From a virus: a stretch of 64,000 nt of DNA. Positions 2,568 through 21,130 of this stretch are shown in pieces. Position numbers and translations under genes: made by a program. The DNA is taken from the IMG/VR virus record IMGVR_UViG_3300045988_015843; one strand, written 5' to 3'. The notes under the pieces were generated by a model. The model was given only the letters and a program-made list of their open reading frames with translations. It was not told the origin of the DNA and searched no databases. Within the stretch, counting starts at the first letter, position 1. Each line of letters starts with the position of its first letter.

Positions 2568-3012
2568 GATTTTTATTTTTAGATTTTTTCAATGGTACAA
2601 ACGCATATTCACACGCATATGATGATATCATTTTTTTCTTTTTGTTTTTATTTTTATCTGCAGCTGGATATTTGCCAACCTCAAACAGGTTATCTGATGT
2701 ATATAACTTACCTATTGGCACTAACTCTATTGGTTTACCAGTGTACCAAACCTCGCCTGTTATATGAGCATCTGGACATTGTTTTTTCGTAGGTTTATGA
2801 ACCTTTATCTTCTAATTAACTGGCACATATACTACGTATGAATAATTAAAGCGAAGTGTGCCTTGCGCAGCCAAACATCCTATCAACGAGTCACTGAAGC
2901 ATAATCTAGGAGTTTTGTTATCTTCATGACCATTCTCGGTGAGACCATTGATAGGAATGGTTGGTGTCATCGTTATCTTATCTGCATAAAAACTATCAAT
3001 CCTGTATAACAT
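2560..3012 (-). CDS. hypothetical protein, 150 aa with one in-frame TAG
   Basis: Track ORF 2812..3012(-) ends at TAG (plus cta 2812-2814). The same frame stays open for 83 more codons ('KIKVHKPTKKQCPDAHITGEVWYTGKPIELVPIGKLYTSDNLFEVGKYPAADK...') to TAA at 2560-2562, and that stretch has no start codon of its own. Confidence 0.5.
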
Positions 3013-3808
3013 CGTTTAGTATATCTGATATTTGATGTGCTATTAGTTGAGCATCTGGATGAGCTCCTTTAGCTAATCTTAACTTTAACATTTTATCCCA
3101 ATCATCTATGAATCCTGTCATAACAAACTCAGTCTTAATTCCACAAGGGAGAAGATCTCTAGCTCGTTCAGCTTTCAAACCTTTAGATAACAAGGTCTTA
3201 TATACGGATTCAGATGCTGTTATATGATCTTTAAACAGCTTCTTTGTTTCAGCATCATACGTATTCCAGTCAGACGGATAGATATATTCAAGATCTCCGT
3301 TATACGTAACATACCTTGTACTTTCTTGCAGGAATGAAAATACTCTATGTCTCATGAATGATTGAGAGTTAATCCTGTTGCACGTAATCCTGAATGAATA
3401 ACGCTTTACGTGAAGCTTATGGGGCTCTGTGAGATATTTGAGATCGTAAGTCCAACCATTCTCGATAACCATTCGATAGTTTGTTGTTATGTATGCATTT
3501 CCATCAAACTCGATAACTCTAGAATACTTGTTTTGTTGATACATCTTAACCATCCCTTTGTACAACTTCTCGGTTTTAGGTATTGTCAAATAGATCGTAG
3601 CATGCTCTAATGCTGCACCATGGTTGTACGATATGAGTTTATTAGTAAATGCCTCAGCTGTTGTAGAACGCCCATTCTCATCAAAAGACATATTCTTCTC
3701 TGATTTGTACGAAGTTCTACCAGCAAGCTCAACCATTTCGAATATTCCAAGTTTGTCGTACTGCTGAGTAAGTAATTCAACATGTGGTTTAATCATCTTC
3801 ATAATCAA
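2996..3808 (-). CDS. thyX: FAD-dependent thymidylate synthase ThyX
   Basis: 270-aa intact ORF containing 'MRHRVFSFLQESTRY', which matches the ThyX signature RHRxxSxxxxSxR. Confidence 0.9.
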   Translation of the reverse strand: MIMKMIKPHVELLTQQYDKLGIFEMVELAGRTSYKSEKNMSFDENGRSTTAEAFTNKLISYNHGAALEHATIYLTIPKTEKLYKGMVKMYQQNKYSRVIEFDGNAYITTNYRMVIENGWTYDLKYLTEPHKLHVKRYSFRITCNRINSQSFMRHRVFSFLQESTRYVTYNGDLEYIYPSDWNTYDAETKKLFKDHITASESVYKTLLSKGLKAERARDLLPCGIKTEFVMTGFIDDWDKMLKLRLAKGAHPDAQLIAHQISDILNDVIQD

Positions 3809-3873: not shown

Positions 3874-4350
3874 TCAGGATCTGTTGCTGTTGATTTTAGC
3901 CTAGACGTGCGCTACATATTTTGTGCACTCTTTTGTTTCTGGTCCGTGTTCTCCTTGTGTGACATAGTGATATGATTGATTCTATTTAAACTCGTTGTAT
4001 TTTCTATATGCTTTGCTTCGTATGTATCTATCACTATCTCGATGTATGTGTTTTAACATAGACTCTCCTGTAACGCATCCTGAGACTCCTAGGTTGCAAA
4101 TATTGTCTAAAAAAGATAAAATTCCATCTTCTCCAAACTATTTTTTTAATATTCCATATGTCTCTGTTGCTTGTACAACATAAGGATTGTGTTTATCGTA
4201 CATTGGATCAACACCAGCTATATACGAAATATTCATAGGAATCTTGTGTATATAGAAATATTTGCATGTATCTGTTACAGGAACTGATTTCTACTACATA
4301 GATAAGAAATCCGCATAATACAAAATAGCACTTAATTCAAACTTATTCAT
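3874..4350 (-). CDS. hypothetical protein, 158 aa with 5 in-frame TAG; weak DUF4065/Panacea-like N-terminus
   Basis: Hand translation from ATG (plus cat 4348-4350) to TGA (plus tca 3874-3876) gives 'MNKFELSAILYYADFLSM**KSVPVTDTCKYFYIHKIPMNISYIAGVDPMYDKHNPYVVQATETYGILKK*FGEDG...'. The only interruptions are TAG, including a TAG-TAG pair (plus ctacta 4291-4296). The 'LYYADFLS...PVTD' pattern recalls DUF4065 proteins; this is a weak, memory-based call. Confidence 0.4.
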
Positions 4351-4355
4351 GTTAT

Positions 4356-4547
4356 CTAATATAATCTAATTAGTCTCATGAGTCTATGTAGGGACGTAAG
4401 AAGTAATATTATATAGTCTTACTTTCCTAAGGAGACTCATGTTATATTATATATAGTCTTACTTATTATCATGAGACTCATGTATATATTATTAGTCTTA
4501 CTATTCTACTTAGACTCATGTTATTATATTAGCTAATATAATCTAAT
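4356..4547. repeat. iteron array in the divergent intergenic region (candidate origin or operator region)
   Basis: The core AGACTCATGT occurs at 4433-4442, 4474-4483 and 4512-4521 (spacing 41 and 38 bp). TAGTCTTACT occurs at 4414-4423, 4454-4463 and 4493-4502 (spacing 40 and 39 bp). A related palindromic copy, CTCATGAG, lies at about 4375-4382. The array is bracketed by the 15-bp direct repeat CTAATATAATCTAAT at 4356-4370 and 4533-4547. Confidence 0.7.
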
Positions 4548-4636
4548 ATAGTTTATATATAATATAATATTCCCCCGAAGCTCTCGTGGCTGTAACGTAT
4601 TAACTAAGCGTTTTGGTTTCACAAGCTATGAAAAAA

Positions 4637-4667
4637 TTTATAAAAAAATAAATTTTTAATATTTTTG
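4637..4667 (+). promoter_or_regulatory. candidate Bacteroidota-type promoter (-7 box TAnnTTTG)
   Basis: TATTTTTG at 4660-4667 matches the Bacteroides -7 consensus TAnnTTTG and lies about 58 nt upstream of the ATG at 4726. A TTTA at 4637-4640 is only a partial -33 (TTTG) match. Confidence 0.3.
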
Positions 4668-4725
4668 CAACCAAAATGCGCACTTCATACGTTACTGCCC
4701 CAGTAATTTAAAACAACAGATTGCT

Positions 4726-5130
4726 ATGACAAAGAAATTAGAAGTGATTGAACCGTTCTTCGGACTTGAACTTGGTGATGTTATGAATCTCTCTGATGAC
4801 GAAAAGTCTTATGTTGCAGAGTATAATTCTGCATACAAGGAGAATGACGATGATGATTCTTCTGTAAAGGCTACCTATTCGTCCAAGTGCTCTATCTCTG
4901 TCGATTATGCAAAAGAGCTTATTGACGAGGGCATGCTTAAGGAGCTCATTGATAAATCAGAGCCGTTTATAAATGTGTTTGATGAGATCGATTCATTGAT
5001 TGAGAAGTATACGTATGACCTGAACAAGGTTGATACACAGGATATGCCTGAGTGTATGAAGGTCGAACAACGTACAGTGATGCTTAATCTCATCAAAGTT
5101 CTTAACTATTTAAAGGGTCTTAAGAAGTAA
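4726..5130 (+). CDS. hypothetical acidic early protein (134 aa)
   Basis: Intact ORF, first gene after the control region, stop TAA. No recognisable motif. Confidence 0.65.
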   Translation: MTKKLEVIEPFFGLELGDVMNLSDDEKSYVAEYNSAYKENDDDDSSVKATYSSKCSISVDYAKELIDEGMLKELIDKSEPFINVFDEIDSLIEKYTYDLNKVDTQDMPECMKVEQRTVMLNLIKVLNYLKGLKK

Positions 5131-5546
5131 TGCAAGAGAAGATTAATCAGAAACCTTTAGCTGAGGATGTAAGTAATAAGATCAAATATGAGTTCTTTGA
5201 CAGCTTTTTAGTAAAGCCGCTTACACCAGTAAAGGTCAAGAAGGAATTCAGTACACCGATTGCGACAGATAAGCCTAAGGCTGATAAGAACGGAATCGAG
5301 GCAACTGATTATGATAAAGTAAAGAAAGAAGTTAAAGAGGTTGATTCAGACTATTTAACAGGTATTGTACTTAAGGTTCCATACAGATATACTAAATGGA
5401 TGGGTAATGAGAAGAGTTATGATCTTCCTCCGATACATGTTGGAGATACGATTTTCTATAAAGCCAGACACTTTGAGTACTTCGATCTTGTTAAAGACTC
5501 TCATCTAGTACGACAATTTGACATTATCGGAAAGGTCCATGATTGA
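5130..5546 (+). CDS. hypothetical protein with a weak GroES/Cpn10-like pattern
   Basis: Intact 138-aa ORF whose start overlaps the upstream stop (TAATG). 'FLVKPL...', 'LTGIVLKVP' and 'IHVGDTIFYKARHFEYFDL...LVRQFDIIGKV' follow the spacing of co-chaperonin motifs. Similarity is judged by eye only. Confidence 0.55.
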   Translation: MQEKINQKPLAEDVSNKIKYEFFDSFLVKPLTPVKVKKEFSTPIATDKPKADKNGIEATDYDKVKKEVKEVDSDYLTGIVLKVPYRYTKWMGNEKSYDLPPIHVGDTIFYKARHFEYFDLVKDSHLVRQFDIIGKVHD

Positions 5547-5748
5547 TGTTAATAGTTTGAGCAATCAAATATCTAAAGAACTCAATATTGATAAAAACAT
5601 TGTCAATGATGTTATACACCAGGTATTTGATTGTACAGCAACGATTATGAAAGACCCGAATGATCAAAGAGATATATTGTTTGCTAAGTTATTTAAATTT
5701 AAATTAAAACCAAGATTTAAACATGAAAACGATTGCAGCGACGTATAA
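5539..5748 (+). CDS. small HU/IHF-like DNA-binding protein (weak)
   Basis: ATG 5539 overlaps the upstream TGA (5544-5546); the track start at 5518 is a TTG. 'LSNQISKELNIDKNIVNDVIHQVFDCTATIMK...FKFKLKPR' resembles the HU fold's N-terminal helices and arm. Confidence 0.5.
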   Translation: MIDVNSLSNQISKELNIDKNIVNDVIHQVFDCTATIMKDPNDQRDILFAKLFKFKLKPRFKHENDCSDV

Positions 5749-6052
5749 TTCAGATGTACTTATTGTCGATACAGAAACCGCTAATATCGAACCGCTTGAT
5801 GTACAAAGGAATGCGTGCAACAGAGTATACATGGCTCCTGAAGATATGCATTTCAAGTTCATAGATCGCGACAGGAGTGTTGAAGAGTTCGATGTTAAAG
5901 CTGGCGATATTATACTTGCGTTTTGGGATACAGATTTTCCGCACAAGTATATAAAGATAACATCTGACGAGTGGAAAGAAAACCTCGATAACTATAATAA
6001 ACGAATGAAAGAACTTAAAACAATTAACGATGAAGTCAATGAAGCCTGTTAA
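5723..6052 (+). CDS. hypothetical protein (109 aa)
   Basis: Intact ORF with an ATG start and TAA stop, overlapping both neighbours in an operon-like way. Confidence 0.55.
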   Translation: MKTIAATYNSDVLIVDTETANIEPLDVQRNACNRVYMAPEDMHFKFIDRDRSVEEFDVKAGDIILAFWDTDFPHKYIKITSDEWKENLDNYNKRMKELKTINDEVNEAC

Positions 6053-6392
6053 GAAATATGTGATCGTAGATCTTACAAACGTTGAGAGCCCCAGTGATGT
6101 ATATGCAGCTTTTGTAGAGGCTAAGTGTGGTGTAGAGCCTATCACTAAAGAGGAGATGTTCAACTACGCTATGCACGTCACAGAGCTGATGAATTCAAAC
6201 ATCGTCAAGTCATGCGCTTATCTAGTAGATTATATTGATGCACTGATTGATACAATTGAGAGTGTTTATGATAATGATGATTCTGATGACGCTGAGAATG
6301 CCGTAAAGAAGCGAGAGGGTGAGGAGAATGAGGTTGAGAAGAAGCCTAATATCTTCAAGCGTTTCTGGAACTGGATTACACGTAAGAAATAA
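6030..6392 (+). CDS. hypothetical acidic protein (120 aa)
   Basis: Intact ORF with a TAA stop, followed by the hairpin TGCAGTG-loop-CACTGCA at 6416-6437. Confidence 0.55.
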   Translation: MKSMKPVKKYVIVDLTNVESPSDVYAAFVEAKCGVEPITKEEMFNYAMHVTELMNSNIVKSCAYLVDYIDALIDTIESVYDNDDSDDAENAVKKREGEENEVEKKPNIFKRFWNWITRKK

Positions 6393-6439
6393 ATAGTTGG
6401 TTACTAAAAACTATCTGCAGTGACACACAACACTGCAAT

Positions 6440-6531
6440 GCGGGAGTAGCTTATGAGGTAGAGCAGTGTGAAGTCTGGAATAATATCAGATGAGATCCTC
6501 ATGGAAGCAGGTTCGAGTCCTGCCCCTGCGC
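6440..6531 (+). tRNA. tRNA-like gene, about 92 nt, with a long variable arm and no canonical anticodon arm
   Basis: Acceptor GCGGGAG, then TA, then D-arm GCTT-ATGAGGTA-GAGC. The T-arm GCAGG-TTCGAGT-CCTGC is canonical, and TGAG-ATC-CTCA forms a variable-arm hairpin. The only central hairpin is TCTGG-AATAATA-TCAGA (6474-6490). It has A rather than U at position 33 and lies 8-9 nt too far from the D-arm. The acceptor 3' strand pairs imperfectly. Confidence 0.45.
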
Positions 6532-6544
6532 AAAAAACTACAAT

Positions 6545-6763
6545 ATGCGGCTAAAAGAATCTAATAGACCAAAACATTTGTTGTACGCTATTCCTGCAGC
6601 ATTTGTTGGTACGATATTATTCAGTACAGGTCTAGCGTTTGGAATGGAGTTTAAAGACAAACAATGGGGAGGTAAGTTCGATTGGCTTGATATAGCTGCT
6701 ACAGAAATAGGTGGTTTAATCGGACAAGCACTTCAAATAGGAGTGATTTCATTATTTGTTTAA
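6545..6763 (+). CDS. small membrane protein (72 aa, two hydrophobic segments)
   Basis: Intact ORF. 'LLYAIPAAFVGTILFSTGLAFGM' and 'IGGLIGQALQIGVISLFV' are hydrophobic helices. Confidence 0.55.
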   Translation: MRLKESNRPKHLLYAIPAAFVGTILFSTGLAFGMEFKDKQWGGKFDWLDIAATEIGGLIGQALQIGVISLFV

Positions 6764-6830
6764 TTAATTAACCTCCTTAAGAAAGAGGTTAACACTGCCC
6801 TATGGTGTAGCGATTAGCACAAGAGGCTCT

Positions 6831-7809
6831 TTTATCCAATGAATAATTGAATATATGGAAAATAAAATATATAAGCTCTCAGACGAACAGTTTGTTGAGC
6901 TGCTCAAGAATAGTTCGACTATATCTGAAGTGTTATTTAAATTAGGTTATAGTGTAAAGGGTAATTCTTGGGGGTTTGCTAAAGTTAAACAAAGAATGTC
7001 TGATTTAAATTTAGACGGAAGTATATTTAAAGGTAAATCTCCAATTACGAAATATGGTACTTTACACAAAGTAAATGCTTCAGATATATTAAAACCTAAT
7101 TGTAAACATGCTCGTTCTGTTTTAAGACGATATGTCATAAAAAATAATCTAATCCCATATCGATGTGCGATTTGCGGATGTGTTGAATGGCAAGGTCGTA
7201 CATTAAGCTTAGAGCTTGATCATATAAACGGAATCAACAACGATAATCGTATAGAAAATCTACGATTTCTATGTCCGAATTGTCATAGTCAGACAACTAC
7301 TTATGGTAGTAGAAATCAACAAAGAAATGATTCTGAATATGAAATTACAGACGATCTTAGAAATTTAGTTGAAGCTGAGTATCAAAAACGTCGTAATATA
7401 AAACAAGTTTCTTCAGCACTTGGTGTTCGTAGACATGTTGTAAACAGGATTGTTAGCGAAAGCGGTTTGAAAAAATCTAATCAAAAATATGTGATTCGAT
7501 ACGATGAGAACTGGAACGAAATTGCACGATATGGTTCTTTGATAGAGACTGCAAAGCAACTTATTCTCAACAACGAAGTTAAAACAAAACGAATTAAAAC
7601 ATGTACTCGTACGATCATGTACAATAAGGATAATTTTTGGTTGAACAGTCATTGGAAAATATTGGATGGTAGCGGGATAATAAATAATCCGCTATTAGAA
7701 TCTTCTCTAATTGACTCGGAAGACAATGTTGACGAGGCGCAAGCGAAAGCAGCGTGACAGACTGAACGAGAAGACTGGTCTTAGGACTGGATGCAACAGT
7801 CGATTTATG
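6831..7809 (+). mobile_element. 979-nt intervening sequence in the tRNA anticodon loop (group-I-intron-like, carrying an HNH ORF)
   Basis: The insert sits between anticodon positions 35 and 36. The boundaries follow the group I rule (U before the 5' splice site, terminal G). The 3' 170 nt is GC-richer and has a TAGCGG/CCGCTA stem (7670-7675/7689-7694), a GCGAAAGC GNRA hairpin (about 7743-7750), 'ACAGACTGAA' (7758-7767, resembling the group I R element ACAGACTAAA) and CAGTC (7797-7801), which can pair with GACTG. The ORF fills 903 of the 979 nt, so a complete ribozyme core is not evident. Confidence 0.5.
6855..7757 (+). CDS. HNH homing endonuclease
   Basis: 300-aa intact ORF containing 'CAICGCVEWQGRTLSLELDHINGINNDNRIENLRFLCPNCHSQ' (HNH with CxxC...CxxC). 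The C-terminal half looks like HTH/NUMOD-type DNA-binding modules. No TAG; the stop is TGA. Confidence 0.85.
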   Translation: MENKIYKLSDEQFVELLKNSSTISEVLFKLGYSVKGNSWGFAKVKQRMSDLNLDGSIFKGKSPITKYGTLHKVNASDILKPNCKHARSVLRRYVIKNNLIPYRCAICGCVEWQGRTLSLELDHINGINNDNRIENLRFLCPNCHSQTTTYGSRNQQRNDSEYEITDDLRNLVEAEYQKRRNIKQVSSALGVRRHVVNRIVSESGLKKSNQKYVIRYDENWNEIARYGSLIETAKQLILNNEVKTKRIKTCTRTIMYNKDNFWLNSHWKILDGSGIINNPLLESSLIDSEDNVDEAQAKAA

Positions 7810-7861
7810 AACCCTCCTGGTCCGGGTTTGACTCCTGGTAGGGCTACTAAAATATAATAAG

Positions 7862-8425
7862 ATGGAAATTAAATTCAAGAAACTTTCTCATAAGGCTGTA
7901 ATGCCTTCAAAAGCACATAAGACAGATGCTGGTTTTGATCTAACTACTACGGGTATAACGACAGAGTTGAATGAGTGTGGTCAGTTGGTGATCGTATATC
8001 ATACAGATCTTGCATTAGAGATTCCTGAAGGATACTTTGCTCTGGTGATGCCAAGATCATCTATTGCAAAGAAGTCATTACGTCTTACGAATAGTTGTGG
8101 TGTGATCGATTCAGGCTATCGTGGTGAAATACTTGGTAAATTTATCGCAACTACAGATGTTGTTCCTGCCGTATACAAGGTTGATGATAAATTTGCTCAG
8201 CTGGTGATCTTGCCTGTTCCTGATGTAGAGTTTGTTGAGTCTGATAATTTTTCAGAATCTGATCGAGCTGATGGTGGTTACGGATCTTCTGATAAGGCAC
8301 AGACTGCTGTAGACTCTGATACTAATACATCTGGCAACGACGAAAATATTTCAGTGCGAAGTGCACGACCGACAGATTGGCAGTCTGCAGTAACTGAGGA
8401 CAATCAGTGCGAGTCTGCAGCATAA
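7862..8425 (+). CDS. dut: dUTP diphosphatase (trimeric dUTPase) with an acidic C-terminal extension
   Basis: 'DAGFDL', 'PRSSIAKK', 'GVIDSGYRGEI' and 'RADGGYGSSD' match dUTPase motifs I-V. Confidence 0.85.
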   Translation: MEIKFKKLSHKAVMPSKAHKTDAGFDLTTTGITTELNECGQLVIVYHTDLALEIPEGYFALVMPRSSIAKKSLRLTNSCGVIDSGYRGEILGKFIATTDVVPAVYKVDDKFAQLVILPVPDVEFVESDNFSESDRADGGYGSSDKAQTAVDSDTNTSGNDENISVRSARPTDWQSAVTEDNQCESAA

Positions 8426-8453
8426 TAACACATGACAACCATCAAGGTTGTTT

Positions 8454-8528
8454 GGAAGTTTAGCTCAGTTGGTTTAGAGCGTCTGCCTTACAAGCAGAAG
8501 GTCGATGGTTCGAATCCACCAACTTCCA
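8454..8528 (+). tRNA. tRNA-Val(UAC)
   Basis: GGAAGTT TA GCTC AGTTGGTTTA GAGC G TCTGC CTTACAA GCAGA AGGTC GATGG TTCGAAT CCACC AACTTCC A. This is a canonical cloverleaf with one A-C mismatch in the T-stem. The anticodon TAC is at 8489-8491. Confidence 0.85.
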
Positions 8529-8564
8529 CCTTCATTTTTTTCATACTGACTTTTTGAATTTGCG

Positions 8565-8588
8565 TTACTCCAACTTCGGTTGGAGTAA
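8565..8588 (+). other. 10-bp perfect hairpin with a TTCG loop at the start of the late block
   Basis: TTACTCCAAC (8565-8574), loop TTCG, GTTGGAGTAA (8579-8588). No T-run follows. The 10-bp palindrome CGTATATACG at 8592-8601 lies just downstream. Confidence 0.6.
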
Positions 8589-8612
8589 TTGCGTATATAC
8601 GTATATATAAAT

Positions 8613-9104
8613 ATGATTTATTCAAAGCTTAGACGTACAAATATACAGAATGCGGCAGGTACTCCTGTCACACCTCGTATTTTACATATGCAAGAGCCTG
8701 ATAAATTGAAAATCGTGGATAGCTCTCAGTTTCAATTCGGAGATGTTCTCGATGCAAAATCTACAATGGAACTTATCGGAAAGGGCGGTGGTTCTGGTGT
8801 AGATATGAAAATGCTCTAGGCATATGTGAACAAAATGACGATTGAGTATGATCCAGCAACTAAATCTGTAAAACTAATCTCTCCAGATGGGATTGTTATT
8901 GGATCTGCTGATATGTCATCTATTGCAACAGAGGGTGGTGTTGCAATTGAATCTGGTTCTTACGATAAGGGTAGTGATAAACAGAACGTGCTGCGTCTGA
9001 AAATGACTGACGGATCTTCTAAGGAGATCTTGATGAACGATGTTATGGACTCTAATGACGATTATTCTATCGACACAAAAGACATCGCATCAATCTTAAA
9101 TTAA
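8613..9104 (+). CDS. hypothetical late protein (163 aa, 1 TAG)
   Basis: Track ORFs 8589..8819 and 8826..9104 are in the same frame, joined across TAG 8817-8819. The likely start is ATG 8613. Confidence 0.55.
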
Positions 9105-11246: not shown

Positions 11247-11669
11247 ATGCTATTTAAAGATTTGAAACAAGGATGTTCTGTCTACATGTTTGACAGGAAC
11301 AACATTGAGGTACACACTGTACAAGTTGTAACAGTCTCAACACCTCATATGGATAAGTACAATAACCAATTTGATATGGTGGTTGATGTCGCAGTTTTAG
11401 ATGCCGGTAAGACCCAAACGTATACGTTTAAAGATAGCAATGAAGTTGGGTATACCGGTCAACTTATGATAACTCCTAACAAAGAGTGTGTTATAAAAGA
11501 ACTCCAGTTACTTAAATCTCAATCGCAGACTATACTTGATAACATCGATCAACATAGAAATAATGTTGAAAAGTGTAATGCACTTATTCAAGAGTTTGAC
11601 CCTGCTATAAAAGCAAAGCAGGAAAACGATGCTCGATACGAAGAGCTAAAACAATCTTAGAGAGTTTGA
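11247..11669 (+). CDS. hypothetical protein (140 aa, 1 TAG near the C-terminus)
   Basis: The track ORF begins at TTG 11199 inside the terminator hairpin, so ATG 11247 is preferred. TAG 11658-11660 is followed by 2 codons and then TGA 11667-11669. Confidence 0.5.
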
Positions 11670-11702
11670 AACAAATGATTATTGATTCTAATAAACCTAA
11701 CG

Positions 11703-12191
11703 ATGGAAACTCTTGATAAGATATTTAAAGATTATGGATACGATAAACAAACATCGGTAATTCATAAAGCGATCACAAACATATCTGAATATTTACAGAA
11801 GGTTTTGGATAAAGACCAGTATTGTAAAGTGATCAAAGATACATATTGTACGTTTGTTGGTGGACATTACAATGAACCGTTTGCTGATGATCAGGTATCT
11901 AAGATGTATTACGAAAAAGATGGGTCTAAATACACAGGACCATTTTTGAACAAGAATCTCGTACTAAATAAGTATAAAGAGATACGTGGCGTAATACCTG
12001 ATTATAATGAGTGGGATTATTATGTAACTGTACAGATGATATATTCAGATAACTATAATCTCATACATGAGTGGTTTCCGAACATATCAGAAGATGAGTT
12101 CAATCAAAAGATTTATCAACTTGCTACCAACTGGTTGAACGATAAGGATAACCCGTTTGGTAATAGTAAAACATGGTGTTATTTTAACTAA
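11703..12191 (+). CDS. hypothetical protein (162 aa)
   Basis: Intact ORF. ATG 11703 is preferred over the track's TTG 11682. Confidence 0.55.
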   Translation: METLDKIFKDYGYDKQTSVIHKAITNISEYLQKVLDKDQYCKVIKDTYCTFVGGHYNEPFADDQVSKMYYEKDGSKYTGPFLNKNLVLNKYKEIRGVIPDYNEWDYYVTVQMIYSDNYNLIHEWFPNISEDEFNQKIYQLATNWLNDKDNPFGNSKTWCYFN

Positions 12192-12199
12192 TATAAATA

Positions 12200-13753
12200 A
12201 TGAAATTTTTAGATCAATCAGGTTTAGTAATTGTTCAATCTTGGATCAACAATAGCTTTGCAAAAGTTGATCAAGCGTTCGGTACTATAAGTTATGCAGG
12301 AAACATATCCGGTATAACTGTTAGTCAAGTCAGTACAACAACAAACGGTAGTCCTTCAACTGTTTATTACGACACAACTGGTGGACAATTTGTATTGAAA
12401 GCTGGTAACAACGTATATTACAACAACTGGCCGAACAAATATGTATGGGTTGTTCCTGGCATTAATGAGCCTTGGGGTTGTGTAATCTATAAAGATCTGA
12501 GCTTAAATAAGCTATATAAATATCTTCCCGAGGAAGGTAGTATGACAGCGTGTGACGTAACAGATTATCCTGCAATGCGTCTTCGTGATCTGCTTGCTGA
12601 TATTGAGATGTATATTGCTCAGAAAAGTATATATGCTCCGTCACAGCATACTCACTCTATTGCAAATGTTACTGGACTTCAGGCCAAGCTTGACACTATA
12701 AACAAGGGTTTGACCGTACTTGGACTTGATCAATGGGGTGCTGTTAAAGTAGATGGTGTTCTGACCAATTCTATTAATGCTGCACAAGGTGGTGTTGGAA
12801 ATCCGACCGATATATATATTGCACAGTCTATCTCAAGTCCGTCTGGTACGATATCTGGAATTGTTGGTAGGATTGGATCTGCATATTATACGACATGGAG
12901 TGGTACTAATGTACCAACCAATTTGTATATGAAGACAAATGGTAGTCCTTATTACAGCAAGTATTATTATACTATGGGTTCTAATGGTCTGCCAAACGCG
13001 GTATACAGATGGAACGGTCAGAAGTTTACGATCGATGAGGATTATTCAGATCATTCGATTTCTGATGGATTCGGCAAAGACCTTGAGGATGCAATACAGC
13101 CGGCATTGGATTATATTGATACAGTATCTGCTGAGTCGGTATCCAGAACAGATGCTGTTACTCATAGTGCTATTAGCAGTACATCTAGCACAGTAAGATT
13201 AGCTTATGTACTTTCGTCAGCAAGTACACATGGTAATATTAAGAATGCTAGTGCTTCAGAGCTCGGCCTTGTCAATGGTGTAAGTTCATCAGGTACAGGT
13301 AATGTTGTAACAAGTATGTCAAAAGCTGCTAACTCAAGTAGTATTACATGGGAACGTAATTGGGTTGAGCCGTGGACAGCTAATGCTTATCATAAACAGG
13401 CATCTGCAACAGCTCGTATTTCAGCTACTGAAGGTGAGTTCTCGGTCCTTGACTTCAGATCAGGTTCAGGCATGTATCTTGGTTTTGCATCTCCGTATAG
13501 TTTGACTAACGGCATGAACCATCATTGGAGAGGTTTGATTATGAAGAAAGCTAATCAGCCTATTAATATTGCAAAGCCTTCAATGCTCAAAACAGATTCT
13601 GTAATCCTGTGTAACCTTCCACAAACTCAGATTGTTAGTGGTACGAATTTCTATTTTGACGCATATACTACGACAAATACATCATCACTATCACATGATA
13701 CTTTGGTACTAATACTGTATCCGGTTACAAACGTATTAGAGTTTTCAGCTTAA
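12200..13753 (+). CDS. tail fibre / receptor-binding-like protein (517 aa)
   Basis: The N-terminus 'MKFLDQSGLVIVQSWINNSFAKV' is paralogous in pattern to the 9881 gene's N-terminus. The product is S/T/G-rich and contains no TAG. Confidence 0.55.
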   Translation: MKFLDQSGLVIVQSWINNSFAKVDQAFGTISYAGNISGITVSQVSTTTNGSPSTVYYDTTGGQFVLKAGNNVYYNNWPNKYVWVVPGINEPWGCVIYKDLSLNKLYKYLPEEGSMTACDVTDYPAMRLRDLLADIEMYIAQKSIYAPSQHTHSIANVTGLQAKLDTINKGLTVLGLDQWGAVKVDGVLTNSINAAQGGVGNPTDIYIAQSISSPSGTISGIVGRIGSAYYTTWSGTNVPTNLYMKTNGSPYYSKYYYTMGSNGLPNAVYRWNGQKFTIDEDYSDHSISDGFGKDLEDAIQPALDYIDTVSAESVSRTDAVTHSAISSTSSTVRLAYVLSSASTHGNIKNASASELGLVNGVSSSGTGNVVTSMSKAANSSSITWERNWVEPWTANAYHKQASATARISATEGEFSVLDFRSGSGMYLGFASPYSLTNGMNHHWRGLIMKKANQPINIAKPSMLKTDSVILCNLPQTQIVSGTNFYFDAYTTTNTSSLSHDTLVLILYPVTNVLEFSA

Positions 13754-13766
13754 TCAATAACCAGCC

Positions 13767-15008
13767 ATGATAAACAATAAACTATTATATTATAAAACAA
13801 AGGATGGTTATGTTAAAGATGCGTCAAACATCTCTTCTGAATCAATAGTTTTCATCGAAGATGATGGTACAATACGCACACATAACAAAACATTCGGACA
13901 GCCGTTGACGGCTGACGAGGACAACCTTACTGTGAAAAACAATGTGATTACAGTTAAGAATCGTATATCGGATCATGGTCGTGGCTATGTTGTTCTCAAG
14001 AAAGACGATGATTTTGTATCATCTGTTGTAGACCAAAATACAACGTATGTTATCAAATATGATTATGTACTAAATGAAGGTCTTAATCTACCTAAGGATG
14101 TAACCCTTAAGTTTGAAGGTGGCTCTCTTACAGGTGGTAGTATCGTTGGTCATGGAGCGTATATAGACGCTCCAACTGATCATCAGATATTTAATAATGT
14201 ACTTGTTGGAGGAAGCTTCTACAATCGTTACTTACCTATCGAATGGTTCGGGCTCCAGAGAGGTACAATAGTGGGTGTAAACTCATTTAATCTAAAAGGT
14301 ACTAAATCTGTAGACAATCTTCCTCAAGATCCTGAAGAGTATGATGCATATGCCGTAGGTCATGATGTATACGTATATTATAAGGACAGAGGTTGGATTA
14401 AGCATGAGAATATTATATCAAGCAAAGCTCTTGATATACAAGCATCACAACCTTCTGAGAGCATATCTATAACTAGTACGAGTATTGATTACGCTGTATC
14501 AGAAGATGGTCAGAATGCTCCAGCAACTGGATGGGCTAAAGAAATACCTACTATAACAATAACACATCGATATGTATGGACTCGTACGATTGTGAATTAT
14601 TCTGATGGTACGAATACAACATCTTATTCTGTAGCATACTCTGGTAAAGATGGTAAGAACGCTTCTGCACTCACTATAAAGGGTCGTGCTGGTAACCATT
14701 TTGCAACAGTAGATGATTTAAAGGCTAGCAATCCTCCTCAGATTTCAGGAACTGTTATATATCTAGTCGATAAACCTTCTGCACACATTACAATAGTAAA
14801 GGATGGAAATGTATTAGCTGGTACTGATGAGCAGGTTAATGATGGTGATGCATACATTATAGCAACAGCTGATAATTCTGGTTCAACAAATGATGTTGTT
14901 TGGATTGCTACAACAAATGGTTGGATTGAGTACCACGGAGGTATCGGATCTGATTCTGAAGTAGATGTTATAACAGATAAAGACCTGTCTGATATGGGTA
15001 TTAAATGA
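13767..15008 (+). CDS. tail-fibre-like protein (413 aa)
   Basis: Intact TAG-free ORF. The call rests on composition and on its position among the fibre genes. Confidence 0.5.
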   Translation: MINNKLLYYKTKDGYVKDASNISSESIVFIEDDGTIRTHNKTFGQPLTADEDNLTVKNNVITVKNRISDHGRGYVVLKKDDDFVSSVVDQNTTYVIKYDYVLNEGLNLPKDVTLKFEGGSLTGGSIVGHGAYIDAPTDHQIFNNVLVGGSFYNRYLPIEWFGLQRGTIVGVNSFNLKGTKSVDNLPQDPEEYDAYAVGHDVYVYYKDRGWIKHENIISSKALDIQASQPSESISITSTSIDYAVSEDGQNAPATGWAKEIPTITITHRYVWTRTIVNYSDGTNTTSYSVAYSGKDGKNASALTIKGRAGNHFATVDDLKASNPPQISGTVIYLVDKPSAHITIVKDGNVLAGTDEQVNDGDAYIIATADNSGSTNDVVWIATTNGWIEYHGGIGSDSEVDVITDKDLSDMGIK

Positions 15009-15009
15009 T

Positions 15010-15525
15010 ATGTTTGACATACAAGGAAATAAAATAAAACTAAGTACTGAGGATTTAGCAATACCCCCATTTAAAGATTACTACAACAATGCTGAAGATA
15101 AGACGTATGCATTAAAGGCTATTGAATACGTCATATGGAATAAGAAATGGAATAGTCCATATAATGCATATCCAGAAAAAGATAGAGCGTCTAAGATAGC
15201 TTATGATGTGTTTGGAGATGCTAATTATATTCCAGATGATACAGTTAAAGATTTGATGCAGCGATTTACAGAATTTCAAGAAACTCCTGGAACAAGATTG
15301 CTAACAGCATCTAGATCTGCTGCAGAAGGACTTATTGAAGCATTGAGTAGTTATTCTGAAGATGGTATGGATATTGACACAGCTATCAAAGTTACTCGTA
15401 TCCTCAAGGATGTTGGTAATATAGTCAAGTCTCTTGATATAGCTGAAAAACAAACTAAAGCTGAACAATAGGAGACTGGTAGAATTAAAGGCGGTGGTAC
15501 ACTCAGCGCTTTTGAAATTGCTTAA
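15010..15525 (+). CDS. hypothetical protein (171 aa, 1 TAG); small terminase subunit possible by position only
   Basis: ORF 15010..15471 reads through TAG 15469-15471 to TAA 15523-15525. It lies immediately upstream of TerL. Confidence 0.5.
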
Positions 15526-15527
15526 AC

Positions 15528-17594
15528 ATGATTGATTTTAATAAGAAAATAGTTAACTCAGATAAGTTTAGACAAGCTGCTTTATTCTTCGAAAAGAACG
15601 GATGTTATACGTTTGCTCCAGAAGGTACGACAGACTACTTCAATTATTGGAAACAAGAACAACAAAGATGTTTAAATGGATACACAGCTCCTGATGGAGA
15701 TTAGATAACTGGGTATCATTACTTTTATCTCAACTATAGTCCTATTATGAAGCTTGTTGAAACAGAATACACAGATCGTAATGGAACTAAGAGAACTAGA
15801 CGAGAGCGTTTGTTTAGATTTCCTGATTTTTGGGATTACGATTGGTTCTATTATAATGCTATAGAACAGGCTGAAGATGAAGGTAAACATATGGTTGTAC
15901 TTAAAGCTCGTGCTCGTGGATACTCATTCAAAGGTGCGTCTATGTTATGTAGAAACTATTTTCTTATTCCAAAATCAAAGAATTTTGCTGTTGCATCGGA
16001 ACAAAAGTTTCTAACAGGTGATGGTTTGTTAACAAAAGCTTGGCAAATCATGGACTTCTTAGATAAGCACTCTGGATGGGCTAAACGAAGATTGAGAGCA
16101 ACTTCTTTAGAACGTACATCTGGATTTAAGGTTAAAGATGAGATAACAGGTAAAGAGGTTGAAGATGGTTATCTATCTAGCGTAACAGGTATAACACTTA
16201 AGAATGATCCAGAACGTATTCGTGGTACTCGTGGTAGATTGTTCTTATGGGAGGAGTCTGGTAAATTTCCAGACATTAAACAAGCTTGGCAAATAGCAAG
16301 ACCTTCTGTAGAAACAGATGACGGTGTTGCGTTCGGATTGATGATTGCATTTGGTACTGGCGGATCTGAGGGTGCAAACTTTGAAGGTTTGTCAGATATG
16401 TTTTATCATCCAGAAGGCTTTAATTGTTTAGACTTCGATAATATTTGGGATGAGGGTATGGCTGATAAGAAGTGTGGATTCTTTGTTCCAGCATGGTCTA
16501 ATCTGCAATCAGATGAACATCCTGAATGTATGGATTCTGATGGTAATACGAATAGATCTGCATCTGTATAGGTAATATTAGAACAAAGAAGAATCGTAAG
16601 AGATAGTCAGCCTGATGAAACTGTAACAGATAGATATATTGCAGAGCACCCCAACACACCTTAGGAAGCAATTCTTGAGGTTGGTAAAAACATATTTCCA
16701 AAAAAGCAATTACAAATGCAGCTTAACAAACTAAGGACGAACACGAAATTAGCTAATATGAAACATGTTGTTGACTTGGTTTGGGAAGGGGATGGTACTG
16801 TAAAAGCCATTGAAAAGAAGGGTGGTGATATAACACACTACCCACTAAAGAAAGGAGAGTAGCCAACAGGATCTGTTGTTATATACGAATATCCTGTTAA
16901 AGATCCTCCTTACGGATTATACATAGCTGGTCAGGACCCTTATGATCAAGATGGTTCTCTTACAAATTCATTAGGATCTACGTTTATATATAAACGATTC
17001 TAGCCAGGAGAAGCTTGGTCAGATGTGATAGTTGCTGAATATAGTGGAAGACCTGATACAGCTGAAGAATATTATGAGAATGTTCGTAAGCTATTGACTA
17101 TGTATAATGCGAAATTATTGTTCGAGAATGAACGTAAAGGTATATACCCGTACTTTACAAATAAGCATTGTGATTATATGCTAGCAGACCAACCAGATAA
17201 GGTTATAAGTGAAATATTCAAAGACTCTAAAGTACAACGTAAGAAAGGTTGTCATATGACAAAACAAATTAGATCATATGCAGAGGGTCTTATAAAAGAA
17301 TGGTTACTTGAAGAATATGAACCGGGTCATCCAAATCTCGAACGTATATATAGTGAGCCATTGATAGAAGAGTTGTTGTTAGATGATGGTGTACGAAATG
17401 TAGACCGTGTAATAGCTCTATGTATGGTCATGCTATATAGAGAAGAATTATATCAAGTAAAGATTGCAGCAGCAAAAGAGTAGAATAAACAAATAGATTT
17501 CTTTGAAACGCCATTGTTTAGTAACCAATGGTTTGACGAAGATAGTTCGTACGATAATTAGTACGACAATAACATTCCGACATTTACGTTTTAA
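15528..17594 (+). CDS. terL: terminase large subunit (688 aa, 7 in-frame TAG)
   Basis: The pieces 15528-15701, 15747..16571 and 17025..17483 plus short fragments are all one frame. The N-terminus carries 'ITGYHYFYLNYSPI', followed by an ATPase region and the nuclease region 'VAEYSGRPDTAEEYYENV...LLFENERKG'. The protein is only complete if TAG is read through (for example 15702-15704, 16569-16571, 17481-17483). The stop is TAA 17592-17594. Confidence 0.85.
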
Positions 17595-17596
17595 CA

Positions 17597-20500
17597 ATGA
17601 TAAGAGTAGAAGATAATTTATATAATGCGAACTTTCCGCAACAGAAACTACCTCTAAAGAAAAAAGATGAGTAGTGGTAGCATGACTGCGTGAATTACAT
17701 TATCGGAGAAGGTAATGTTGTATCTGGCGGAATGTAGAAGACTCGGTTTAGCGAACTTCAAACATATTACGATCTATATAATAGTATCTTTGATGAAAAG
17801 GACTTTAAACGTATAACCAACCCGTTTAAAGTATCAGACGGATTTCCTGCTACACCACAAGACTTCAACATAATTAGGCCTAAGGTAGACCTCCTTATAG
17901 GTGAAGAGACAAAGAGGCCGTTTAATTTCAGAGTTGTACGTACATCACAGGAGGCAACATCTGACTTAATGGATTAGGAGAAAGAAATGCTAATCCAATA
18001 TATGATGAGTGCTATTATGGGCAGAATGAGTCCTGAAGAGCAACAATAGTTCCAACAACAACTTTAGAGTGGTGAGATAATGCCGCCTGAAGAGATTGGA
18101 AAGTATATGCGTAGGGATTACAAAGATGTTATAGAAAACACAGCCTATCATTCTCTGATGTATATACGCGAGAAGTGTGGTATAGATAACGAGTTTATCA
18201 AAGGTTGGAAAGACGGTTTGATAGCGGGACAAGAGGTATACTATGTTGGTGTACAAAATGGAGATCCTTACATGGAACGTGTGAATCCTGTATATTTTTC
18301 ATTCGATCAGTCACCAGACCTTGAGTTTATAGAAGATGCGTCATGGTGTTGTAGAAAAATGAGACTCCCTGTAGCTGAAGTATACGACAGATATCATGAT
18401 AAGTTGTCTGAGAAAGATTTAGACAAATTAAACGAGATGTTAACAGGTCGTCCATCAAATGATCTTGGAGAAAAAGACCCTGTTGATAATTTCAATCATA
18501 TACAAATGCATATATACGATAATCCTGTTTTTGATCAGAAGACAAGACATAACATTAATGTATGGCATTGTTGTTGGAAATCGTTTAAGAAGATTAAGTA
18601 TGTTACGTTTCAAGATGAAAACGGAGATGCTTAGATTGAAATCGTAGACGAATTCTATAAACCTGTTGGAACAGAGATAGGTATTGATGAGGATTGGATT
18701 GTTGAAGTATGGGAAGGATATAGAGCCGGATCAGATTTGTATTTTGGTATACAACCGGTTGCTTATCAACATATAAGCATTGATCAACCAGATAGTCAGA
18801 AGTTACCTTATTGTGGTGCTATATATAGTAACACTAACAGTAAGCCAAGATCCCTTGTAAGCATCCTCAAGCCTTTGCAGTATATGTACATTGTATTGTG
18901 GTATAGACTTGAATTAGCAATAGCTAGGGATAAAGGTAAGGTTATCAATATGGATATTACGTAGATACCTAAATCTATGAATATTACACCAGATCGATGG
19001 ATGCATTATTTATCAAGCGTTGGTGTAAACTTCATAAATCCTTATGAGTGCTTTGATCCAGATACAGAGGTGTTGATGTACGACAGATCTGTTCGTAAGA
19101 TTAAAGATATTCATATTGGTGATAAGGTACTTGGTCCAGATGGAACTCCACGTACTGTATTGGATGAGTGTGAGGGTATCGACAAGATGTATAGAATACA
19201 CAGTGGCACAGGATGTGATGATTAGATTGTAAACAGTAGACATAAAATTTATTATACTGAATATAATCACTTTAAAAAAACATACACTGACAAGTTGGCA
19301 ACTCCATTGGAGTTGATGAAAGAGGATCTACATAAGTCGTATATAAAACAAAATCGATATTTGAAACGAGTACATCCTACTGACAATAATGTTTCTTCAA
19401 ATTTACTATTAGATCCGTATTATCTTGGATTATGGTTGGGCGATGGTTTTACAAACAGTCCTGCAATAATAAACGAAGATATAGAGGTGATTAAGTGGTT
19501 GTCAGAATATGCCGAGTCTAATGGTATGACAACAACAATCCTTTCTGATAAAAACGTTCCTGTTATATATCTTAAAAATAAGGTGTATAATCATAAGAAC
19601 CCAATAAAAGACACACTTCAATATTATGGAATCTTAAATCAAAAAGATATCCCAGATGATTACCTACATGGTAGTGTTGAAGATAAACTACAGTTAATGG
19701 CAGGTCTTATTGATACTGATGGGCATTTTTCAAAGCGTGATCGCATTTATACATTTAGCCAATGTGAATCTAGAAAACATATTGTAGACAAACTTGCTTT
19801 TATAGCAAGATCTTTAGGATTTAAATGTAGTCTACACATGTACAAAACCGCTGGTACAAAACACATATGTGGTAATAAGAGCACATGTCAAAATACATAC
19901 ACGTTACGAATAATTGATGGATTGTACGATATTCCATGTAAAATTGCTCGTAAGAAACATCATTGGGTTCAAAAGCGTACAAAACGAAGTTTGACAAATT
20001 TCAAGGTTTCGTACAGCCATATTGGAAAATACAAAGGTATCACTACAGATGGAGATCACTTCTTTGTGTTAAAAGACTTTACAGTAGTACATAACTGTCA
20101 ATGGGGTATTCCTGGCAGAGAGGGTGGTAAACCAGCTACGTTTAATCAAATAACATCACTTGATCTTACGATGAGTAATGTTATTGCGGAGTATATTCAA
20201 CTCATGGATAAGATTGAACAATTAGCTGGAACAATCACTGGTATCACAGAGCAACGTCAAGGAGCTATTAGCACATCAGAACTTGTTGGAAACGTAGAAC
20301 GATCTGTATTACAATCATCTCATATCACAGAACCCTTGTTCTGGGTACACAACCAATGTAAGAAGCACGTGTTAACAATGCTTCTTAATACAGCAAAAGG
20401 TGTCTGGGAAGAGTCTGGTAAGAAAAAGCTTCAATACGTATTTGATAATGGAGAAAGAGCATTCTTAGCAATAACAAAACAATTCTATTATGAAGATATG

Positions 20501-21130
20501 GATGTATTCGTTAGTGACACATCTAAGGATGCTGAGAACATAGCAAAACTTCAACAGCTTATTCAACCTGCAATGCAAAATGGAGCAAGCTTGTTAGAAG
20601 CAGCAGAGGTTCTTACGAATGATAACTTTAACATTATCAAACAGAAGCTTAAAGATATGCAAGATCGTCAAGATCAACTTTAGCAGCAGCAACAAGAGGC
20701 TCAGCAGCAACAAGCAATGCAACTTCAGCAGATGCAGAATGAGGCTAAAGAGCAAGAACTCATGCTTAAGGAAGCTGAAATGGATCTTCAGAGGTATAAG
20801 ATTGATGCTGATAATCAAACCAAGATTGCTGTGGCTGAAATTAGCACATATAGAGGTACTGAGGATAAGGATATCAATATGAATGGTATTCCAGATCCGA
20901 TGGAGATAGCTAAGGATGCTACACAGCAACGTAAGATAGATTCAGAAGCATATACTAAGCGTTATGAAGCTCGTCAGAAAAAGGAGATTGAAGATAAGAA
21001 GATCAGTCTTGCTAAAGAACAGATGAAACATGAAAGTGAACTTTAGAAGTAGAAAGACGACGCTGCTATGTAGAGAGAAGAGCTTAAGGCTAAGACCGCA
21101 TTGAAAAACAAAGTAGCTGGTGAACGATGA
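17597..21130 (+). CDS. portal protein interrupted by an intein (1177 aa precursor, about 828 aa after splicing, many TAG)
   Basis: ORFs 18080.., 18737.., 18977.., 19295.. and 20717.. are all in the frame of ATG 17597. The stop is TGA 21128-21130. The portal call rests on size and on position directly after TerL, as in crAss-like phages. The Q-rich C-terminus reads 'DQL*QQQQEAQQQQAMQLQQMQ'. Confidence 0.7.
19049..20095 (+). mobile_element. intein with a LAGLIDADG homing endonuclease (349 aa)
   Basis: It begins 'CFDPDTEVLMYD' (Cys1, block A) and ends 'FTVVHN' followed by Cys+1 (TGT 20096-20098). The two LAGLIDADG motifs are 'LGLWLGDGFT' and 'LMAGLIDTDGHF'. It contains one in-frame TAG (19223-19225). 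Confidence 0.85.

Follow-up and report, generated by a model that had tools for sequence, protein, structure and literature searches.

A tRNA(CUA) gene split by an HNH-encoding, group-I-like intron in a TAG-recoded crAss-like phage

Group I introns in the anticodon loops of bacterial tRNA genes (cyanobacterial tRNA-Leu(UAA) and tRNA-fMet, and Azoarcus tRNA-Ile) are inserted after a U, have a compact core with a P3/P7 pseudoknot and are polymorphic for presence or absence at one site. One of them, the tRNA-fMet intron of Bonocora and Shub (2001), encodes a homing endonuclease whose specificity is for the anticodon region of the tRNA, according to the passage of a 2014 review that cites it (PMC3984707). 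The phage group I introns known at the time of that review were all in protein-coding genes (PMC3984707). We analyzed a 64,000-nt stretch of the IMG/VR virus record IMGVR_UViG_3300045988_015843 (hereafter the window) and found an insertion that shares these traits of the bacterial tRNA introns in a phage tRNA gene with the anticodon CUA. The window comes from a crAss-like phage with a genome of ~98 kb (IMG/VR relatives 96–100 kb) in which TAG is recoded to glutamine (Gln). Its block 4726–8530, readable with the standard code, probably carries the amber suppressor tRNA(CUA) of the phage, split by a mobile, HNH-encoding, group-I-like intron, as judged from sequence comparison.

Recoded crAss-like and other gut phages have been described (Yutin et al., 2021, PMC7886860; Borges et al., preprint, 10.1101/2021.08.26.457843) which, like the window, read TAG as Gln, carry TAG mostly in structural genes, have a nearly TAG-free replication module and hold the suppressor in a stretch compatible with the standard code. 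The model in which a standard-code module delivers the code-change machinery has already been published in these two studies. The window differs from the phages described there in that an intron conceals its otherwise canonical suppressor tRNA, and in that some of its TAG-rich genes lie on the minus strand beside a divergent intergenic region. Three surveys (the same two and a 2025 study) reported codon reassignment without a detectable suppressor tRNA in some genomes and offered divergent tRNAs, host factors and incomplete sequences as explanations. The window provides a concrete, checkable alternative for missing suppressors, namely a canonical tRNA whose anticodon is split by a mobile intron.

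Inserts in the tRNA genes of TAG-recoded gut phages are known from the Lak megaphages (Devoto et al., 2019, PMC6784885), where, as in relatives of the window, they are conserved and present or absent between genomes. The portions of that paper dealing with tRNA introns list inserts in tRNA-Tyr(GTA), a putative tRNA-Thr(TGT) and other tRNAs of the A1, A2 and C1 genomes, mention no suppressor tRNA, and describe a comparison with Rfam with no classification reported. Set against the Lak inserts as they appear there, the window insert is 979 nt long, encodes an HNH protein and has a group-I-like core. SegB of phage T4 is likewise a homing endonuclease tied to a phage tRNA region, but in the relevant part of its description (PMC2330249) it is free-standing and intergenic, whereas the window endonuclease lies inside a tRNA gene, within the intron. 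No report of an intron-split suppressor tRNA was found in the literature searched, which is not proof of absence; a suppressor split by an HNH-encoding, group-I-like intron is a new form of a known kind of element. It would also be an example of something absent from the 2014 review, namely a phage tRNA gene interrupted by a group-I-type intron.

The split tRNA(CUA) gene

No intact tRNA(CUA) was found in the 64-kb window by ARAGORN or Rfam on the genomic sequence. The gene is present in two halves on the plus strand, the strand of all genes and RNA features of the block. Exon 1 (6796–6830) comprises the 5′ strand of the acceptor, the D arm, the 5′ strand of the anticodon stem and the loop (...CUCU) to U35, and exon 2 (7810–7847) comprises A36, A37 and C38, the 3′ strand of the anticodon stem, the variable region, the T arm and the 3′ strand of the acceptor. 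Between them lies the group-I-like intron of 979 nt (6831–7809), which interrupts the anticodon as CU/A, between U35 and A36. Removal of 6831–7809 in silico gave a cloverleaf tRNA with the anticodon cta in ARAGORN (6796–6830 + 7810–7847). The allele of one relative (L005; related loci are referred to by such numbers) is uninterrupted and aligns to the window through 6830 and then from 7810 with no gap, so the window tRNA(CUA) is interrupted by exactly 6831–7809. At this one site L003, L005 and L007 are uninterrupted and L002, L006 and L013 carry the insert; an intact tRNA(CUA) was found at the same locus, between the membrane-peptide gene and the dUTPase gene, in L003, L005, L007, L008, L011 and L012. 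There is no target-site duplication, and the insert is preceded by an exon U and has G as its last nucleotide. The unspliced junctions read CTCT/TTTATCC (5′) and TTTATG/AACCC (3′), and the junction expected after splicing is GGCTCT/AACCCTCC, or in a longer form ...AGAGGCTCT/AACCCTCCTGG.... In contrast to the bacterial tRNA introns, the gene interrupted here is that of a putative phage amber suppressor tRNA, and the insertion point is CU/A (35/36).

Because the insert splits the anticodon, standard tRNA finders miss the suppressor gene. A permissive ARAGORN run, with a low threshold and introns permitted, gave nothing but spurious calls, whose introns were hundreds to thousands of nucleotides long. 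Annotation pipelines for recoded phages should look for tRNAs with long introns. No second tRNA(CUA) was found by ARAGORN in the window or in the sister-genome loci (L002, L004, L048–L073) that cover most of the remaining genome; the block holds the only identifiable tRNA(CUA) gene of this genome, and that gene is split by an intron.

The 3′ motif of the HNH-type insert was found in at least 33 IMG/VR viral contigs, with a tRNA 3′ half after it in each, and had no match among 185,579 bacterial and archaeal genomes. Both halves of tRNA(CUA) were readable in approximately 20 of these contigs, with 5′ exons that end in CUCU, a final U in every readable 5′ exon and anticodon stems that covary. The split gene might instead be a pseudogene wrecked by insertion of the HNH element, with suppression supplied by another source such as a host suppressor, a divergent tRNA (for example the tRNA-like gene at 6439–6531) or manipulation of a release factor. 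We consider this very unlikely, given two intact exons and covarying anticodon stems in some 20 diverse intron-bearing genomes, an intron motif without a match in bacteria and archaea, and an RNA core (described below) on which structural selection is strong even in its overlap with a reading frame. Genes such as those for the large terminase subunit (TerL) and the portal need TAG read-through, as do many others, and the exons are intact across diverse intron-bearing genomes, from which we infer that the intron is removed.

The tRNA-like gene named above (6439–6531, 93 nt) has canonical acceptor, D and T arms and is aberrant in carrying ~20 extra nucleotides in the anticodon arm. These form a hairpin (UCUGG-AAUAAUA-UCAGA) and a second hairpin, and no standard anticodon is readable. 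The gene is kept in five relatives and deleted in L006. It was rejected as the suppressor because it contains no CTA, because no excision of ~20 nt gives a U33 loop and because it is deleted in L006, which retains the intron-bearing gene. A first-pass annotation, made from the letters of the window, had counted three tRNA or tRNA-like genes in the block and taken these to be all the tRNA genes. Within the window this holds, but sister genomes carry a second array (L059 14–2709, L066 4223–6918) of Gln-UUG, Leu-UAG, Lys, Asn, Thr, Leu-UAA and Met tRNAs, which sits in a nearly TAG-free minus-strand module outside the window. The third tRNA-like gene was rightly recognized as tRNA sequence; it is, however, the 5′ half of the split tRNA(CUA), and had been listed apart from the HNH open reading frame (ORF) that follows it.

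The intron, its RNA core and its endonuclease

The intron encodes an HNH homing endonuclease of 300 aa (6855–7757) with no TAG, an identification already made in the first-pass annotation and upheld here by a marginal match to PF01844 (21.9 bits against a cut-off of 21.4) and by phrog_10822 (E = 2.6e-44). Its ORF starts 24 nt past the 5′ splice site and runs into helices P2–P6, with its final 98 nt (from P2, 7670) overlapping the RNA core. The alleles at the insertion site are polymorphic, and cleavage of the intron-less allele by the enzyme is predicted. A gene for a GIY-YIG-type endonuclease lies directly downstream of the uninterrupted tRNA(CUA) in L003 (6160–6415, truncated) and L007 (12085–12953); the tRNA(CUA) locus is a hot spot for several homing endonucleases.

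Nucleotide conservation among the intron copies was highest over the final 90 nt of the HNH ORF and the next 50 nt. This part of the intron (7660–7809) holds a conserved, ribozyme-like core of ~140 nt (P2–P8) supported by covariation, with P2 at 7670–7676/7688–7694, P3 at 7701–7707/7768–7774, P4 at 7715–7718/7733–7736 (with a short P5 inside), P6 at 7737–7740/7752–7755, P7 at 7760–7764/7797–7801, P8 at 7776–7780/7785–7789 and a 3′ tail of 8 nt (7802–7809) that ends in G. The elements follow in the order P2, P3, J3/4, P4 (P5 within), P6, J6/7, P7, P3′, P8, J8/7, P7′ and tail. Covariation was assessed for P2, P3, P4, P6, P7 and P8 on alignment A1 (n = 28 sequences) with 500 shuffles and slid controls. 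In these helices 99.5% of cells were paired and 11 of the 34 pairs had changed on both sides, with at least one double change per helix; none of the 500 shuffles matched these figures, and the slid controls reached 36–48%. RNAalifold independently found P2–P6 and P8, the nested helices. A pairing of P3′ with CUCG at 7715 was dropped in favor of P4 (CUCG/CGAG) because L032 shows CUCA/UGAG.

The core has the topology of a group I intron, with helices P3–P8 and a P3/P7 pseudoknot. It also parallels, element by element, a different and ORF-less insert of 186 nt at the same site in L004, which shares with it the P3/P7 pseudoknot, R-like and S-like sequences and an A-rich J4/5. Over its full length the L004 insert aligns with Rfam Intron_gpI (24.8 bits, E = 2e-4; the score is under the gathering threshold of 50), and it shows a U.G pair in P1 and ends in G. 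A further phage tRNA intron was observed in L078, a 193-kb viral contig, where a gene of the tRNA-Leu(UAA) type (~5650–5990; loop CUU/AAAA) is split by a small group I intron whose core motif matches that of the L004 intron.

Several points weigh against a self-splicing group I intron in a functional suppressor gene. The core structure was derived from the same sequences that test it. RF00028, the group I family of Rfam, gave no hit for the window intron, even with E up to 10 on 176 nt; the Rfam scans took in the whole window and the segments 4200–8800, 6780–7870 and 7640–7815, and none of them returned group I for the HNH intron. The search for a P1, or for an internal guide that pairs with the exon end GCUCU, yielded nothing convincing. 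The only conserved G[AG][AG]G[CT] guide motif was GAGGC at 7736–7740, part of P4/P6. When the 5′ segment of the intron was folded as a duplex with the stretch ahead of P2, the results differed from one sequence to another, and no pairing of the 3′ tail with the 5′ end of the intron was seen by eye. A scan of column pairs gave a long-range helix (6835–6841/7660–7666, within the complementary segments 6834–6841 and 7660–7667), an alternative partner (7650–7656) and a local hairpin, and left the exon end unpaired. The terminal nucleotide, G7809 in the window and G in 19 of the 28 copies, is A in the remaining nine (Bohxovirus type and L032). The aberrant tRNA-like gene close by is conserved, and ~9 kb of the closest sister contig were covered only via homologous loci of other relatives. 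The lack of an Rfam group I hit and of a P1, the terminal A and the neighboring tRNA-like gene are also what can be said for a pseudogene, the last of these being offset by its lack of CTA and its deletion in a genome that keeps the split gene. Introns that end in A are unusual among group I introns. The subfamily ending in A consists of L014, L015, L022, L025, L026, L028, L029, L043 and L032 (...UUUAACA/AAC) and has an unchanged P7 sequence.

The missing P1 and the variable G or A at the 3′ end would also fit removal of the insert, or joining of the halves, by a route other than self-splicing, with the HNH protein acting as a maturase or with an endonuclease and an RNA ligase; the overlap of the ORF with the core, which makes protein and RNA co-evolve, points the same way. 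Such a route is unlikely in our estimation, since the core matches the bona fide group I intron of L004 in its P3/P7 pseudoknot, its R-like and S-like sequences and its A-rich J4/5, the exon-final U is found in all of the ~20 readable copies and the intron-final G in 19 of 28. The window intron differs from the bacterial tRNA introns in an HNH ORF that extends into P2–P6, the absence of an RF00028 hit, a P1 that was not found and a subfamily ending in A. Near its 5′ end the intron has an element, UCCAAUG (6834–6841), whose complement occurs in three conserved segments (AUUGGA/AUUGA), a local one at 6847–6852 and two shortly before P2 at 7650–7656 and 7660–7667. The alternative pairings of this element might couple translation of the ORF to folding of the ribozyme.

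TAG use and the proposed code switch

Membership of the phage in the Crassvirales is supported by its major capsid gene (23260–24783), which matches PF23898 (Pfam Crass_capsid) with E = 1.5e-211, and by the TerL (15528–17594) and portal (17597–21130) genes, which match crAss-type PHROGs and have TAG counts of 7 and 13, respectively. Reading TAG as a sense codon increased the coverage of the window by long ORFs, and at least 143 in-frame TAGs were counted across its 43 genes, TerL and portal among them. A codon-level comparison with relatives showed CAG or CAA in 17 of the 23 substitutions at window TAG codons, which indicates that TAG is read as Gln. TerL homologues were tried for assigning the amino acid and were uninformative, because the database translations already use TAG = Q, and the codon-level comparison replaced them.

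The first-pass annotation had described eight consecutive coding sequences (CDS) at 4726–8425 without TAG between TAG-containing genes on both sides, and this was borne out. The eight (4726–5130, 5130–5546, ~5518–5748, 5723–6052, 6030–6392, 6545–6763, 6855–7757 and 7862–8425) have 1136 codons and no in-frame TAG, the minus-strand gene 3874–4350 has 5 TAG in 158 sense codons, and the block from 8613, called late in that annotation, uses TAG (1 TAG in gene 8613–9104). The block can be translated without TAG suppression, as had been proposed. A statistical test of the absence of TAG had been suggested in the same place, and its outcome was divided. With the rest of the window as background (TAG at 0.74% of codons), 8.35 TAG were expected against none observed (P = 2.4e-4). 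The block has only 28 Gln codons, however, and conditional on Gln sites the significance fell to P = 0.009 because the block is Gln-poor; a post-hoc scan for any TAG-free run of this size gave P = 0.04 (uniform) or 0.10 (among Gln sites). Nor is the block the longest such run, since 11247–15525 holds 1247 TAG-free codons (tail-fibre-like genes), and there is a further run of 1043 codons around the capsid gene. TAG-free genes number 17 of the 43 in the window, nine of them outside the block. The TAG-free island is real, yet it is statistically modest and not unique.

These figures leave room for a different, possible though doubtful, explanation in which the island is an outcome of composition and gene history and not a designed early standard-code module. 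The genes concerned would be short and Gln-poor, some of them mobile or recently acquired (HNH, dUTPase), and TAG would be patchy through expression level and horizontal transfer. Besides the 28 Gln codons, the conditional and scan P values, the longer run at 11247–15525 and the nine TAG-free genes elsewhere, the absence of in-frame TAG in all 15 HNH ORFs of intron copies that share the reading frame of the window ORF, across diverse phages, accords with it. The Gln codons of the capsid gene do so as well; all 16 are CAG, with no CAA and no TAG, in a genome otherwise rich in CAA, which suggests codon optimization rather than gating. On the other side, the nominal and conditional P values remain low, the suppressor gene itself is in the block, and in a sister genome (97% identical) ~15 consecutive minus-strand genes hold 1 TAG altogether, which fits a genome-wide division into modules and not noise. 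The island is thus one of several TAG-free parts in a genome partitioned by module.

We weighed the stronger proposal of the first-pass annotation, that the block delivers the suppressor and that everything else is gated by it, in its two halves. The second half fails, as the major capsid protein (23260–24783), the tail-fibre-like genes (11703–15008) and ThyX (2996–3802), among others, have no TAG and the minus-strand module of the sister genome is nearly TAG-free. For the first half, the only tRNA(CUA) gene is in the block, just upstream of TerL and portal with their 7 and 13 TAG; it is split by the HNH intron, however, so that delivery would need RNA splicing. As in the code-switch module of the Borges et al. 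model, the suppressor lies in a region compatible with the standard code and the recoded stops lie in structural genes.

Under the reading that we prefer, a standard-code block with an intron-split suppressor, the block would be transcribed rightward from the divergent intergenic region, the pre-tRNA would splice itself by group I chemistry, and RNase P and RNase Z of the host would trim its ends. The mature tRNA(CUA) would be charged with Gln by the host glutaminyl-tRNA synthetase (GlnRS) and would then permit translation of TAG-containing genes, including TerL, portal, the giant ORF described below and several minus-strand genes. The HNH enzyme would cut intron-less tRNA(CUA) alleles of co-infecting relatives, by which the intron would spread. 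The proposed code switch thereby gains an RNA-processing step, and a selfish element would depend on, and be tolerated in, a gene on which the genetic code of the phage relies. It is a speculative and rather unlikely extension that intron-split suppressors are general in recoded gut phages and explain much of the ~60% of TAG-recoded genomes without a suppressor, with splicing as a delay that times the switch from the standard code to TAG = Gln; the delay would then lie in the folding of the ribozyme, to which translation of the HNH ORF through the core may be coupled.

Flanks of the block and other genes

The block is bounded upstream by a divergent intergenic region (~4350–4725) that divides the minus-strand genes from the plus-strand island and holds repeat families (TAGTCTTAC...GAGACTCATGT) with ~40-nt spacing, in agreement with the iteron region noted at first pass. 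Five small TAG-free CDS (4726–6392, of which 4726–5130 is a DUF7399 gene) are followed by the tRNA-like gene, a membrane peptide CDS of 72 aa (6545–6763; phrog_38535), the split tRNA(CUA) gene, a TAG-free dUTPase CDS (7862–8425) whose earlier identification was upheld by profile matches, and a canonical tRNA-Val(UAC) (8454–8530; Rfam 72.3 bits, ARAGORN). The hairpin reported at the end of the block was confirmed as an interrupted stem of 13 pairs with a UUCG loop (8562–8592; ~-17.6 kcal/mol) and no U tract.

Minus-strand genes at 25–981, 1065–1553 and 3874–4440 are TAG-rich and adjoin the divergent region. The first has an HExxH-like motif (LAHETTHAV) and the second a hydrophobic Gly/Ala-rich segment; the TAG-rich minus-strand genes had no matches in PHROG and Pfam. 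They could be late or lysis genes, so the first-pass proposal of a pattern that reaches beyond the late genes may not hold; a role in lysis, if they have one, would match the bias toward TAG reported for lysis genes.

With TAG as sense, one ORF of at least 7166 codons opens at 42501–64000, with 51 TAG, and runs past the end of the window; in the sister contig L050 its counterpart stops ~7.7 kb beyond. This giant ORF is presumably the crAss virion RNA polymerase/cargo block, either fused or mis-joined by read-through. The portal gene has an insert of ~300 aa (~residues 500–800) that matches phrog_36964 and phrog_15, annotated as terminase large subunit, and ends intein-like (C...HNC), and TerL homologues of relatives contain Hint/LAGLIDADG inteins (PF14528, PF14890).

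ARAGORN called a permuted transfer-messenger RNA (tmRNA) in four distant relatives (L065 1204–1609, L068 1242–1611, L073 1245–1619 and L011 908–1277), with similar tag peptides (GDYNIVDYTHVA; GNINVVDYTGLQEAA), 9–12 kb upstream of the DUF7399 gene and outside the window. This may be a genuine conserved RNA or else a false positive that recurs. The membrane peptide gene (6545–6763) has 81% nucleotide identity to positions 3649–3831 of L001 (IAS virus), a segment inside the IAS tRNA array, where the IAS tRNAs are encoded on the other strand. The gene seems to be a short conserved ORF that moves together with tRNA clusters of phages.

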